Assembly (NCBI GenBank): GCA_005222975.1 | Contig: NJBI01000060.1 | Span: 1 to 18,776 of the forward strand | Source of the DNA: Promethearchaeota archaeon Loki_b31 | GTDB taxonomy: Archaea; Asgardarchaeota; Lokiarchaeia; Sigyniarchaeales; SOKP01 | Direction of reading: 5' to 3' | DNA length: 18,776 bases | In this document: in pieces, positions 5,607 to 18,776 of the stretch | Layout of the letters: each line of letters begins with the position of its first letter | Numbering within the stretch: the stretch's first letter is position 1 | The notes under the pieces: model-generated | The model's input: the letters and a program-made list of their open reading frames with translations, nothing else | The model's database searches: none | What the model was told of the DNA's origin: nothing | Made by a program: the position numbers and the translations under genes

Positions 5607-6647
5607 TTAAAAATTAAGGTTAGTATTGATTAGACGGACGACTATATCTTTTAAAATAGGTGTGAGATCATTTTTCAAAGCTAGTCCATCTAATTTTAAA
5701 TCGTAATTTATTTTATTAAATTCCATTAAAGCGTTAGAAATTGCTGATTCTATATGATCTTTTTGTATCTGGTTTTTTTTATTATCAGTTAGTCCACAAA
5801 TTATATCTTCTGCAAAACATTTAGTCATATTATCTTTAAATTCTGCGAATTTATAAAATGAGCCGAATCGAAGATAAGATGATAAGAACTGACTAACTGC
5901 TTTTTCAATTTCACTAGGGACAATCTGTTTGTTACTAATACAATAAGTTTTTATCATTCTTTCTAAAAGAGAGCCGTTAAATTCGTAAATTATTTCTTTT
6001 TTAGATTTAACATTTTCATTTAATTGCTTATTTTTCATTGCATCTTCTTCTTTTCTTGAAAATAAGACATCCTCATAATCTTTTACAATTAGATTTGATA
6101 GAGCAGAACGTAGTATTATAATATTTACATTAATTTTATTACTTCCTTGGAAGTGTGTAGGAACATTATGCATGTGTCTAAGTAAAATATCTTCTATATT
6201 TAGGTTTTTAGTATCATAAGGACTAAAAAATATTTCATATAATGCGCTAAAGTTATATTCTTGAATATTTTTTTTCATTAATGTTCTCAAATATTTATTA
6301 ATATCGAGGAAAAATCGAAAAATGCAATCGTCAATAGCAAGCGCTAAGTTGTTTTGTGGATATTGCGCTCTGATAAGATATTTCTTGTATTCTAATCGGA
6401 TTTTTTGAGCCCTTATCCATTCTATAGCGAAATCTAACAAACTTTTCCCGATTATAATTTTATCTTTAAAATACAAAAGAATACCATAAAGTTCTTCATA
6501 AGAAGACCCAATAGATTGATTGAAAAGAAATTTTGCTATCATGCTTAATTGGTCTTGATCTTTAAACTGTCTATTAATCCTGTTGTAATAAGAAATCAGT
6601 CTTTCTTTGTCAATTTTATATTTATTTTCAAACTCTATACACTCCAT
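5607..6647 (-). CDS. Hypothetical protein, mostly helical (346 aa)
   Basis: Long ORF with ATG start, tightly spaced with its neighbours; no recognisable motif. Confidence 0.75.
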   Translation of the reverse strand: MECIEFENKYKIDKERLISYYNRINRQFKDQDQLSMIAKFLFNQSIGSSYEELYGILLYFKDKIIIGKSLLDFAIEWIRAQKIRLEYKKYLIRAQYPQNNLALAIDDCIFRFFLDINKYLRTLMKKNIQEYNFSALYEIFFSPYDTKNLNIEDILLRHMHNVPTHFQGSNKINVNIIILRSALSNLIVKDYEDVLFSRKEEDAMKNKQLNENVKSKKEIIYEFNGSLLERMIKTYCISNKQIVPSEIEKAVSQFLSSYLRFGSFYKFAEFKDNMTKCFAEDIICGLTDNKKNQIQKDHIESAISNALMEFNKINYDLKLDGLALKNDLTPILKDIVVRLINTNLNF

Positions 6648-6679: not shown

Positions 6680-7051
6680 TTAATTATCAAGGTTTGCTTC
6701 CAAATCGTTGAGACTCTCATTAGAAAGAGTATCCCATTTTTTAAACCCAAAATTAGGGTTTATTTTAAACATAATATCAGAAACATCTTTATTTCCATCC
6801 ACCATTAATCGTAAATTTTTTTTATAGAAAGATATTTTATTCAAATCGTTAAATCCTTCAGTATCTTCAATCAAAATAACGCCATAGCTCTTTTTTATAT
6901 CTTTGTCAACAACATATTCTTCTAAATAAATCACTTTTTTCTCATGAGAATGTAATTTAATTAATCTAATATTTGGATATATGGTGGTGACATTGAATAA
7001 CTTTAAAGTCTCATCTATTAACTTTTCATAGTAGTCAGGTAAAATCGCCAT
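6680..7051 (-). CDS. Hypothetical protein (123 aa)
   Basis: ATG-started ORF, 23 nt and 32 nt from its co-oriented neighbours; no confident family. Confidence 0.7.
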   Translation of the reverse strand: MAILPDYYEKLIDETLKLFNVTTIYPNIRLIKLHSHEKKVIYLEEYVVDKDIKKSYGVILIEDTEGFNDLNKISFYKKNLRLMVDGNKDVSDIMFKINPNFGFKKWDTLSNESLNDLEANLDN

Positions 7052-7074: not shown

Positions 7075-7712
7075 CTAAACATTTTTTCTTAACAAGTTAT
7101 CCTTATCAAAAGTAAACAAATTTGATGCTTTATAGTATTTAGATACTATCCTTTCAATTAATCCCACACAATAATAATTATGTTGTTCTTCCCAATGCAC
7201 TTTTCTTGATGATCCAAGAGAATATGCGATTAAATTTAAACCTCGGGTTAATTCTTTCTGTATAAATTTAGAATACTTAAATTTGCTTCCTAAAAAATTC
7301 TCCTCTACAATCGTCCCCTGAATTATATCAGGGAGGATATATTCACATAATTCGTCATCAATCTCTTTAATATCTTCTGTATAAGGAGATGCTATTAACG
7401 CTGAGAGATTGGCTATCCCGTCTTCACTCTCATTCGATGCATTTATATTAAAAAAGGATTGAAACCTTTTCTCGTTATATGAGCCTTGATTCTGTAAAAT
7501 TAAAGCCGATTCAATAAAATCAATATTCCAAGGATTTCCTTTATTACACATTTCAGTTAAAAATACAGGACTGGACCTAAATATTTAAAAGAGAGCATTT
7601 TCAAATTATTCTCTCTTTCTTCAGTTAGATCCTCAGAAATTTTGATTTTATCATAAACCATTTCATCTTCATTTGCGAAAAACAATCCTAAAATTGCATT
7701 AATATTATTCAT
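7075..7712 (-). pseudogene. Hypothetical protein, probably one ~212-aa gene split by a 1-nt frameshift (7557-7712 plus 7075-7551)
   Basis: ATG 7712 opens a 51-aa ORF (MNNINAILGLFF...KYLGPVLYF, stop at 7557-7559). The frame of the 158-aa ORF is open upstream of its ATG as 'IFRSSPVFLTE-MCNK', overlapping that tail. The span is 638 nt, one short of 639. Confidence 0.55.
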
Positions 7713-16852: not shown

Positions 16853-16945
16853 TATCTCTTCACAATTATATTGCTTTTTGAAAATGTAGAATTAAAGCAA
16901 TAATAATAAGCTTATTGTAATTAAAAATAAATAGATAAAAAAAGA

Positions 16946-18637
16946 TTATTTGAAGAGCTTCGCGTCTTCAAGAATTTTTTTATGATCGAAAGCTAAATCA
17001 ATATCTTTCAATTTTTCTTTGGGTATTATCTCTACTTTTTTAGAGTCGTCTCCGCTTCTCAATTCGGAGATATCTCCAATAATAGTACATTTGAAAGCTA
17101 TTGAATGAATGTTCCCTCTTGGGTCCCTTCCTTTTTCAGTATAAATACCAATTTTAGATTTAATTTTTACTTTTAGATTAGTTTCTTCCTTAACTTCCCT
17201 TACCAAGGCGTCGATTGGTTTTTCTCCTTTTTCGATAAATCCACCAGGGAGCGCATAAAAATTCTTGAATGGTGGATATTTTCTCTTAATTAAGATAACA
17301 TTTCCTTCTCGATCTTCGATTACGGCGTCAACAGTTTTCCCAACTTCTGATTTTTCTGTTTGTAATCTTATATACAAATAATAGCCAATTGTAGTAATTA
17401 GTATCCCCATTATAATCGCAGCGATGGCACCATTTAACACGGAAGTAATAAAAATTCCTTCTTGTAGATTTAACCATATCATTACAACTCCAGCTAGGTC
17501 AGCCAAAATTCCCGCCCCAAAAAGTAGTTTTAATAGATTAAGGCCTCTCTCAGTTCTTTCTTGATTTTCTTCGCTTTTTTTACGATGTAAATCTTTCATT
17601 ACATCGTATATTGAATTAAATTTTACATTTATGCGATTAACAATATTAGTTACTTCGAATTCATTTAGCAGATGTTTTAACACGCTGGTATAGTGTTGTC
17701 TTCTATTATAATCTAATTCGTTATATATTGCGCTTAGAGTTGTTTGAATCATACCCCTCAATAATCTTAAATTTCTAATTTTTTTCTCTATTGTGTTTAA
17801 ATCTTGAAACGCTTGCGTTTGCGTTTTCAAAAACAATAAATCTAGCGATTCATTTATCGAGCGCAGCGAAAATAATACTGCTCTCATTTTTTGAGTAGGA
17901 TCAATTACAAATTGTTTCATATAGGATTTAAAGAATTTTTCGTAATTTTCTTCAGCCATATAAACAAATCCAGAGTTCCTTCGTATAAAATGTAGTTCTG
18001 AGAGCCTGTTAGATAAATTATTTTGGATTCGTTTGTCAAATAAAGTATCCGAATAATCATCCCACTGCCCCGAATATATTTCTGTCCAATACCCTATTAC
18101 CTTCTTATATTTTTCAATATTTTCTGGATTCCAAATTATATCTCTGGGTTTGATTTTATTGGAAGTAACAAAGATATAAATAGGGCTTTCTGTATCAAAA
18201 TGAAGTCCCGTGTTCTCAGCTTTATTGTTAAATTCTTTTAAGATTTTTAAAAGAATAAGGGGTACTTGCTGAATTAGCATTGGCCTTAGAGATTCTTTTT
18301 TAGAAGGATTATCTTTATAATATTCTACTTCAAATTGAAAATATCCTAATGTATTATAGTCTCTTTCGGAATTTTCGTCCTTAAAGGGAAAATTAGATAA
18401 GCAGGTGACCCAACTACATTTAATAGAAATATTCCTAATTAATTCAAATAAATCTTCCTTAAGTTCTTTTTTGTATACATCCTCGTCCTTTAAGTTTTGG
18501 AATTTAGTTTTAATGAGATTCTCGATTTCTTTACTTTTTAATTCAACATTAATTTTAGAAGTATTTATGAACGCACTAATGAACCAAAACTCTTCTTTAT
18601 AGATAAATTGTAGAATTTCACTCATAATATCCAACAT
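16946..18637 (-). CDS. Membrane protein: large N-terminal soluble/coiled region, 2 TM helices, C-terminal Nudix hydrolase (ADP-ribose pyrophosphatase-like)
   Basis: Nudix box 'GFIEKGEKPIDALVREVKEETNL' (17242-17174) with 'TVDAVI', 'LIKRKYPPFK..ALPGG', 'RDPRG', 'SGDD' and 'LAFDH'. Two hydrophobic segments lie at about 17543-17370. The start is ATG 18637 or 18625. Confidence 0.88.
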   Translation of the reverse strand: MLDIMSEILQFIYKEEFWFISAFINTSKINVELKSKEIENLIKTKFQNLKDEDVYKKELKEDLFELIRNISIKCSWVTCLSNFPFKDENSERDYNTLGYFQFEVEYYKDNPSKKESLRPMLIQQVPLILLKILKEFNNKAENTGLHFDTESPIYIFVTSNKIKPRDIIWNPENIEKYKKVIGYWTEIYSGQWDDYSDTLFDKRIQNNLSNRLSELHFIRRNSGFVYMAEENYEKFFKSYMKQFVIDPTQKMRAVLFSLRSINESLDLLFLKTQTQAFQDLNTIEKKIRNLRLLRGMIQTTLSAIYNELDYNRRQHYTSVLKHLLNEFEVTNIVNRINVKFNSIYDVMKDLHRKKSEENQERTERGLNLLKLLFGAGILADLAGVVMIWLNLQEGIFITSVLNGAIAAIIMGILITTIGYYLYIRLQTEKSEVGKTVDAVIEDREGNVILIKRKYPPFKNFYALPGGFIEKGEKPIDALVREVKEETNLKVKIKSKIGIYTEKGRDPRGNIHSIAFKCTIIGDISELRSGDDSKKVEIIPKEKLKDIDLAFDHKKILEDAKLFK

Positions 18638-18776
18638 TAAAAATATTATTAGAGATTTTTCGTGTCAAAAATATTTAAAACTTTTTAAATCTTGAAATCG
18701 CTTCTTCGTTAACAAGAAATGTTGGAGGGAAGGGTATCTTCACCGAGGAAATTAATCAATATCATGAAAAAGAAAA

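Follow-up and report, generated by a model that had tools for sequence, protein, structure and literature searches.

The CorA protein of type III CRISPR systems, as in the Cmr system of Bacteroides fragilis, binds SAM-AMP in its soluble domain, needs its transmembrane (TM) domain, and is obligately paired with a signal-degrading enzyme, to which it is fused in Aliarcobacter (PMC10600005). In invertebrate TRPM2, ADP-ribose (ADPR) gates the channel at an N-terminal site, and the C-terminal Nudix domain is active and hydrolyzes ADPR (PMC8145809); since gating takes place at a separate site, this Nudix domain serves to break down the agonist. The effectors of Thoeris systems are diverse, some being enzymes and others TM proteins; types II, V, VII, and X have membrane or ion-channel effectors, and among the 29 effector types recorded in a recent systematic survey of TIR systems, there is no CorA-like or Nudix-bearing entry (bioRxiv 10.64898/2025.12.03.692087). 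Here we analyze a gene of Promethearchaeota archaeon Loki_b31 (genome G000), located at positions 16946 to 18637 on the minus strand of an 18,776-nt contig stretch (NJBI01000060.1, assembly GCA_005222975.1), to which we refer as the window. Its 563-amino acid (aa) product, P0001, joins an N-terminal alpha/beta domain (N-domain), a helical stalk, two TM helices, and a Nudix domain. It is quite possibly, in our tentative reading, a ligand-controlled membrane effector or channel with a built-in signal-degrading enzyme. The gene had been singled out by an earlier reading of the DNA sequence alone (the original prediction), whose author knew of no characterized protein with this architecture; our literature searches likewise found no description of a CorA-like/Nudix fusion.

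The gene is one uninterrupted frame of 563 codons, as originally predicted without mention of the strand; an open reading frame (ORF) scan and translation place it on the minus strand only, the plus strand being closed. Neither a signal peptide nor a Pfam match to TRP/MHR domains was found in the 563-aa protein. The fusion is real, and Asgard archaea of several groups conserve it. When residues 1 to 430 were used in a word-indexed search, 488 clusters were returned at E ≤ 1e-3 (90% clustering); a profile search returned up to 508. Nearly all of the best 120 of the 488 clusters are 556 to 568 aa long, carry PF00293, and have Loki-, Promethe-, and Hermodarchaeota source names, while the profile search added members from Hel-, Hod-, and Thorarchaeota. 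Within the phylum, the module was found in 41 of 201 genomes, including 25 of the 40 of the window's family and 15 of the 16 of its genus, some of them with two copies. An exhaustive phmmer search of 1.84 billion representatives (50% clustering) yielded merely 91 relatives, so the family is narrow in sequence space. The source annotation of its members is solely "NUDIX hydrolase" or "8-oxo-dGTP diphosphatase." The original prediction had raised the possibility that the fusion occurs in this assembly only and had proposed the search of Asgard genomes; the same colinear architecture recurs in hundreds of independent NCBI, JGI, ENA, and Logan assemblies. Together with the presence of the module in the 41 Asgard genomes, this rules out an assembly or gene-calling artifact, to which we assign practically no chance.

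The Nudix domain is present in 21 of 46 diverse members, and the others, ~380 to 445 aa long, end just past the TM region. Because such Nudix-less forms exist in Heimdall-group archaea (Heimdallarchaeota, Kariarchaeaceae, and Hodarchaeales), the N-domain and the two TM helices appear to be the functional core, with the Nudix domain as an addition. The whole N-domain/2TM/Nudix architecture is also encoded by a eukaryote-like MMETSP-derived transcript (L037:175-3045; P0212, 956 aa; P0136, 849 aa). Its protein is 34% identical to P0001 over 608 aa and has a long disordered S/G/P-rich tail and a degenerate Nudix box (RE to RS, EE to ED); the transcript has 49% GC, and its contig also carries a Pho88 gene. 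In the tree, this protein falls within the Nudix-fused Asgard forms, a position that points to transfer to a protist or to contamination more than to vertical descent.

The coordinates that follow for features of the gene are window positions on the minus strand. The predicted cytoplasmic alpha/beta domain (aa 10 to 227; 17957 to 18610) was delimited by an AlphaFold model and conserved residues, and no Pfam family was found for it. It contains the most conserved motif of the family, at aa 184 to 224, which begins with W184-x3-YSGQW-x-DYS and continues to NLSNRLSELHFIRRNSGF. In family alignments, W169 and E214 are invariant, and D148, Y188, S189, G190, D194, N207, R211, H216, and S222 are nearly so. 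This aromatic and charged cluster resembles a ligand pocket or catalytic site, making it a candidate for either. The helical region that follows (aa 229 to 365; 17543 to 17953), recognized from the AlphaFold helices, VIA-align, and hhalign, consists of three long helices and the cytoplasmic part of the stalk and carries a conserved ELDYNRRQHY motif; the amphipathic helices quoted in the original prediction are present in the translation ahead of the TM segments.

TM1 (aa 366 to 391; 17465 to 17542) is continuous with the stalk helix, has the sequence LLFGAGILADLAGVVMIWLNLQEG with an end reading ...VVMIWLNLQEG, and shows the family motif LN-LLFGAG-ILAD. It is followed by a short outer loop, N-L-Q-E-G (aa 390 to 394; N/S-L-Q-E-G in the family consensus), and TM2 (aa 396 to 423; 17369 to 17452). 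Both helices are defined by hydropathy, AlphaFold, and conservation: Kyte-Doolittle windows give TM segments at ~371 to 389 and 395 to 425, and the modeled helices span 329 to 391 and 396 to 429, in agreement with the original placement at ~366 to 391 and ~395 to 423. K/R residues occur at both inner TM ends and are absent from the NLQEG loop, so the N-terminal region (~365 aa) and the Nudix domain are both predicted to be cytoplasmic (N-in/C-in), the arrangement that had been deduced from the presence of two TM helices. In the family alignment, N370, G374, G376, and D380 are conserved in TM1, and N402, G411, and T416 in TM2; position 370 is a K in the Loki_b31 protein and a TM1 Asn in 181 of 185 relatives. 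As a passive anchor needs no conserved polar residues, these polar and small residues argue against a plain anchor, and the simple anchor that the original prediction had set against its own proposal is disfavored on the same ground.

The Nudix domain begins ~10 residues past TM2 and extends over aa 434 to 558 (16964 to 17338), where Pfam NUDIX (PF00293) matches with an E value of 3.6e-18 (66.3 bits against a cutoff of 21.1). Its Nudix box (aa 466 to 488; 17174 to 17242), GFIEKGEKPIDALVREVKEETNL, was located in the translation and by family conservation; it reads G466-x5-E472-x7-R480-E481-x2-E484-E485-x-N487 and keeps the pattern GX5EX7REUXEEXGU intact save for the final G. The N in its place is the family norm (168 of 185). 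Since E472, R480, E481, E484, and E485 are kept in 179 to 184 of the 185 fused homologs, the domain is, to judge from this conservation, under selection as an enzyme, beyond a mere binding module. RDPRG (504 to 508) and LAFDH (548 to 552) are ≥97% conserved, and C517 is invariant. The catalytic Glu and Arg residues, the terminal N, and both motifs had all been noted in the original prediction, which assigned the domain to the ADPR-type Nudix proteins of the NrtR/NadM kind.

Database matches agree with that assignment and place the domain nearest the NadM-Nudix/NrtR-type ADPR pyrophosphatases (COG1051). The top NCBIfam models are bifunctional NadM-Nudix halves and the model of an ADPR-responsive repressor that this database names NtrR (E values of 5e-15 to 5e-10; domain-only matches below the full-length cutoffs), and the PDB matches include 2fml (Enterococcus faecalis NrtR EF2700), 3i9x, 2qjo and 2qjt (NadM-Nudix), and 3gz5 (NrtR). 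RDPRG and (L/V)(A/F)FDH motifs are common to the family's Nudix domain, 2yyh, and 2fml. The C-terminal domain finds its best sequence matches in the NadM-Nudix, NrtR, and NuhA proteins (2qjo, 2fml, 3gz5). These are soluble proteins with a nicotinamide mononucleotide (NMN) adenylyltransferase or a winged helix-turn-helix domain as fusion partner, whereas the Nudix domain described here sits on a CorA-like membrane module. According to Rodionov et al. (PMC2330246), the Nudix domains of NrtR and NadM bind or hydrolyze ADPR, those of NrtR come nearest to ADPR pyrophosphatases, EF2700 retains the residues through which NadM contacts ADPR, and in this group ADPRase activity goes along with an intact Nudix signature. 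We infer that the substrate is most likely ADPR or a compound closely derived from it.

An AlphaFold model of aa 1 to 430, built with an alignment of 46 homologs, reached a pLDDT of 89.4 and a pTM of 0.80; single-sequence modeling of the full protein gave a pLDDT of 36 and was unusable. In the model, the alpha/beta domain (10 to 227) is followed by helices at 229 to 273, 280 to 310, and 314 to 326, by one 63-residue helix (329 to 391) running from the cytoplasm through TM1, and by TM2 (396 to 429). No Pfam, NCBIfam, PADLOC, or PDB-profile match was found in the N-terminal part, all such matches being confined to the Nudix domain. A Foldseek search of the PDB gave no match at E ≤ 0.001, with CorA chains recurring among the weak rows. 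When Foldseek's top 1000 chains were realigned with VIA-align, the first 16 entries were all CorA or MRS2 proteins, including those of Thermotoga maritima and Methanocaldococcus jannaschii and human MRS2, with Z scores of 7.4 to 8.4 and 227 to 249 residues aligned over model residues 13 to 426 at a root mean square deviation (rmsd) of ~7 to 8.6 Å. A Foldseek-independent search of 48,161 chains returned T. maritima CorA 5jrw_A as the sole whole-length match (Z 8.2, 237 residues), all other top rows being helical hairpins over residues 352 to 430.

In the ESM Atlas, where both sides of the comparison are predicted structures, the model matched its own cluster at a TM score of 0.86, a "CorA-like Mg2+ transporter" cluster (PF01544 in 60% of its members) at 0.63/0.69 over 323 residues (rmsd 4.0), the MJ0711_N cluster at 0.62/0.72, and several unannotated bacterial clusters, one of them GGACT-fused; our literature searches found no mention of the Pfam 38 families MJ0711_N and MJ1566_N named in the Atlas. 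Language-model neighbors include a "CorA-like protein" cluster at 0.92. A four-copy complex prediction of aa 232 to 430 scored 0.16 (mark 0.42), which counts neither for nor against an assembly. Because the structural scores are moderate, we accept for the N-terminal 430 aa only a CorA-like architecture, and probably the CorA fold. The modeled protein shares with CorA, MRS2, and ZntB the alpha/beta domain, the helical bundle, the very long stalk that continues into TM1, the short loop, TM2, and the location of both termini on the inside; it differs in its ~80 extra residues and in the enzyme domain that comes after TM2, the point at which CorA stops with a few basic residues.

Another Asgard family that lacks annotation, with members of ~432 to 464 aa (L056:1615-3003, L058:588-1982, and L060:1456-2754), shares the stalk and 2TM module (family hidden Markov model [HMM] E values of 4e-7 to 2e-11; hhalign 94%, E 1.3e-7, aa 258 to 389). 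Its N-domain is different, with the motifs PWTHRIYHI and YFGWGHSI and no Pfam match, and in comparison with CorA it likewise falls short (hhalign 17.8%).

In sister clades, family members are found beside TIR genes. Whole-genome searches of 15 genomes with TIR_2 (PF13676) gave 0 to 16 TIR matches per genome. At four loci, in genomes with 3 to 14 matches each, TIR_2 genes above the Pfam cutoff lie within ~2 kb of a family member, while the probability of such proximity by chance is roughly 1% per locus. At G012:C25, the TIR match of a WD40-TIR protein ends ~180 bp upstream of the family member; G085:C4 has three TIR genes within 8 kb, one of them adjacent; at G018:C17, a TIR gene stands on each side; and at G097:C49, one lies ~700 bp downstream. 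The six TIRs that were read (from G012, G085, and G018), putatively of the NAD-cleaving type, keep the catalytic glutamate of S-x-x-[CV]-x-x-E-[WL]. In a FastTree phylogeny, the four TIR-linked loci fall into two clades that bracket clade A, to which the window copy belongs, a pattern that points to an old TIR association and to a later settling of clade A in a stable locus. As genus-level loci may share ancestry, we count at least two independent TIR associations, not four. The WD40-repeat proteins with a C-terminal TIR that adjoin the sister paralogs (L042:5225-8806 in G012:C25 and L040:5380-8595 in G085:C4) are 1071 to 1193 aa long; the 1193-aa protein contains 19 WD40 stretches (Pfam), and the layout resembles STAND or NLR-type sensor-TIR proteins.

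The window copy has a different setting. The neighbors of 22 loci were clustered all against all, and the 9 clade A loci, window included, proved to be one synteny block with a hexapeptide gene downstream. In the window, the gene is followed by this hexapeptide-repeat protein (hexapeptide transferase) gene and then by ThiF, Roadblock, LSM, and HGD-D genes. In all 8 clade A loci that extend far enough, nadA lies divergently upstream, in two of them with one intervening gene. Loci outside clade A have unrelated neighbors, and the clustering of the 22 loci revealed no conserved operon partner outside the clade A block; an HMM search found no hidden paralogs among neighboring ORFs. No cas genes were found in the window or at the 22 related loci, and the protein did not match the PADLOC or NCBIfam CRISPR-CorA models, its PADLOC match being limited to the Nudix domain. 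TIR matches in G000 are found only on contigs C65, C46, and C35, and the side upstream of the window copy lies beyond the contig end. Given the stable housekeeping neighborhood, the window copy may serve NAD/ADPR-linked physiology rather than dedicated antiviral defense.

If the gene does encode a ligand-controlled effector with its own signal-degrading enzyme, the pocket-like motif of the N-domain would sense an NAD-derived nucleotide, either ADPR or a TIR-made derivative, and in the TIR-linked clades the TIR proteins would make the activating nucleotide. The polar-lined TM pair, probably oligomeric, would then change membrane permeability, while the fused Nudix domain, predicted to hang at the membrane surface below TM2, would hydrolyze the ligand and thereby reset or limit the response. 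Oligomerization, the pore, the identities of ligand and substrate, and the coupling of the domains are what we infer in this scheme.

A number of observations weigh against it. Homology to CorA is not apparent in the sequence: PF01544 does not match the protein even at E ≤ 1, and when the family profile was compared with 14 Asgard CorA proteins by hhalign, the probability was 8%, over the stalk and TM1 only (328 to 392 against 261 to 322). GMN is the defining selectivity motif of CorA, and it does not occur at the outer end of TM1, as the original prediction had already remarked; in the hhalign alignment, the family's N-L-Q falls at the G-M-N of CorA, and the aligned positions are topologically equivalent. 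Nor are the structural matches strong, as Foldseek E values against the PDB were no better than 8.6e-3 (best CorA row, 1.4e-2), and a Z score of ~8 with an rmsd of ~7 Å is in the range where common helical arrangements can score. Membership in the CorA family is therefore not demonstrable by sequence, and the resemblance appears to lie at the fold level. The CorA/ZntB layout originally proposed is supported structurally, as the whole-length structural matches are only CorA and MRS2, and homology to CorA at the sequence level is not supported.

Further points on the same side concern the enzyme and the loci. The best PDB match of the Nudix domain, 2yyh (E 2e-21), is a structural genomics entry without an established substrate, and substrate specificity is not readable from sequence. 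Nudix domains of the NrtR/NadM type usually form domain-swapped dimers (PMC2330246), an arrangement that would sit uneasily with a CorA-like pentamer. Several short forms from the Heimdall group have an amphipathic, charged "TM1," and only one TM helix is predicted in them. A TIR neighbor is present at only 4 of the ~13 loci outside clade A; no TIR gene was found in the 16.9 kb downstream on the window contig or at the 9 clade A loci, and the contig reaches only 139 bp beyond the start codon on the upstream side. The neighbors in the window are housekeeping genes. Even the link to nadA is weak evidence, because the block is confined to one archaeal family with wider shared synteny, and nadA (PF02445) was not found in G000 (92% complete, 99 contigs) while being present in close relatives.

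The main rival explanation, rather unlikely in our judgment, makes the protein a membrane-tethered housekeeping pyrophosphatase for ADPR or another NDP-X, in which the TM hairpin localizes the enzyme, the N-domain regulates or scaffolds it, and there is no pore. Strong purifying selection on the Nudix active site, the proximity of nadA to the clade A orthologs, and the undetectable sequence homology to CorA all speak for such an enzyme, as do the stable housekeeping synteny of the window copy and its presence in 15 of the 16 genomes of the genus, which is unlike the typically patchy occurrence of defense genes. The Nudix-less N-domain and TM forms, however, make the enzyme the accessory part; the conserved polar TM residues and the stalk continuous with TM1 would be needless in a plain anchor, and the N-domain is conserved beyond the needs of a scaffold. 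Fold-level resemblance also brings in a true but very divergent transporter of the CorA/MIT type for Mg2+, Co2+, or Zn2+, in which the Mg2+-dependent Nudix domain would be a metabolic addition; we regard this as improbable. CorA/MRS2 chains are the sole whole-length structural matches, an acidic/polar loop, N-L-Q-E-G, occupies the position of CorA's GMN, and a six-frame PF01544 scan of G000 gave no match at 92% completeness, this gene included, although the same scan detects CorA in 14 of 21 relatives and in 13 of 14 control genomes. Against a transporter stand the missing GMN and PF01544 match and the TIR neighbors of the sister clades, which point to signaling over ion nutrition. Canonical CorA co-occurs with the family in G007, G010, G011, and G012, so the family is not a simple CorA replacement. 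An anticorrelation of the family with canonical CorA had been considered and was ruled out by the co-occurrence in these four genomes.

The TIR genes that adjoin the sister clades would suit an abortive-infection effector of the Thoeris kind whose toxic output is the Nudix domain itself; it would destroy NAD(H), nucleotides, or cofactors that contain ADPR, and the N-domain and TM helices would act as the sensor. Thoeris effectors do include diverse enzymes and TM proteins (bioRxiv 10.64898/2025.12.03.692087), and the PADLOC candidate PDC-S07 matches the Nudix domain (E 2e-15). That match, however, reflects generic Nudix similarity, the NadM/NrtR-type Nudix domain is of the housekeeping kind that acts on ADPR levels, and the window copy has no nearby TIR partner. 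Moreover, the existence of Nudix-less effectors implies that toxicity cannot depend on the Nudix domain, and we see little chance for this explanation.

A ligand-controlled membrane effector with a signal-degrading enzyme would be of a known kind, namely, a CorA-type effector that is ligand gated and coupled to such an enzyme, or a membrane effector working within a TIR system. By analogy, the type III CRISPR CorA protein has the organization proposed here, in which a cytoplasmic domain at the N terminus binds the ligand and a CorA-like TM module forms the C terminus; it and the present family are both divergent from Mg2+ transporters, and both are coupled, in our case by proposal, to a nucleotide-degrading enzyme. 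The partner of CRISPR CorA is an NrN/DEDD phosphodiesterase or a SAM-AMP lyase, whereas the enzyme here is a Nudix pyrophosphatase placed after TM2 rather than a DHH/DEDD protein or lyase, and its likely ligand is derived from NAD/ADPR instead of being SAM-AMP. The family also differs in being found in Asgard archaea without cas genes, with the window clade in a housekeeping context. Invertebrate TRPM2 (nvTRPM2 and srTRPM2) shares with the family a catalytically intact, C-terminal ADPR-type Nudix domain on a cation-channel-like membrane protein, but it is a 6-TM tetrameric TRP channel with MHR domains and a NUDT9-like Nudix domain (NUDT9-H), as opposed to a 2-TM CorA-like protein with a NadM/NrtR-like one, and the likeness is one of analogy only. 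The comparison with TRPM2 drawn in the original prediction therefore suits the invertebrate channels, with their active Nudix domain and separate N-terminal gating site, and a closer precedent is the CRISPR CorA fused to NrN. In Thoeris systems, a TIR gene adjoins a TM effector that is presumed to answer a TIR-made ADPR derivative, a neighborhood shared by the sister clades; in contrast, the window copy has no adjacent TIR gene, and the family's putative effector carries its own hydrolase. What would be new are the different enzyme, the probable ligand class, the domain order, the Asgard host, and one clade outside a defense context.

The whole gene, a fusion of N-domain, stalk, 2TM, and Nudix domain (16946 to 18637), was delimited from the ORF, its translation, and hundreds of colinear homologs. 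Two in-frame ATG codons, M1 and M5, occur at 18625 to 18637. Since the orthologs are mostly 556 to 559 aa long and align from M5 in the homologue search and alignment, the ATG at 18625 (18623 to 18625) may be the real start, giving a protein of 559 aa. Reading of the sequence further pointed to a candidate promoter, a TATA-like box, TTTTAAATAT (18671 to 18680), with an A-rich, B recognition element (BRE)-like stretch before it, ~39 nt upstream of the first ATG, and to a T-rich tract directly after the stop codon (16923 to 16945) as a candidate archaeal terminator. With these two elements on either side, the gene is probably transcribed alone, as a monocistronic unit.

Elsewhere in the window, GC content falls to 0.26 to 0.28 between 5000 and 8000, compared with 0.33 to 0.39 on the flanks. 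This stretch covers the minus-strand ORFs 5607 to 6647, 6680 to 7051, and 7075 to 7551 (346, 123, and 158 aa) and may be an island or foreign DNA. At another locus, G152:C56 (L047:10376-13032), tandem paralogs of 425 and 428 aa without a Pfam match lie directly upstream of a family member, and unannotated genes of 418 to 436 aa flank family members in L033 and L051; neither these nor the G152:C56 pair match the family HMM.

At the least, ~500 entries named "NUDIX hydrolase" or "8-oxo-dGTP diphosphatase" hold an unannotated, highly conserved 430-residue membrane module that merits a family of its own. It is tempting to go further and to see here a new class of archaeal, and rarely eukaryotic, channel-enzymes with a CorA-fold pore, gating of the N-domain by ADPR or a TIR product, and a Nudix off-switch, which would follow in Asgard archaea the logic of Thoeris and TRPM2 and in which the window clade would have been domesticated from a TIR-linked defense effector into a sensor of NAD/ADPR homeostasis beside nadA; this wider proposal is conceivable, if doubtful. 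Should the proposed effector model hold, the protein would be the first 2-TM, CorA-fold "chanzyme" and a new effector type for TIR/NAD-derived signaling, in the archaea that stand nearest to eukaryotes. It would link CRISPR-associated CorA effectors, Thoeris-type TIR signaling, and ADPR-gated TRPM2 channels, which are now studied apart, and the window clade would present a case of a defense-type effector fixed in a housekeeping locus.

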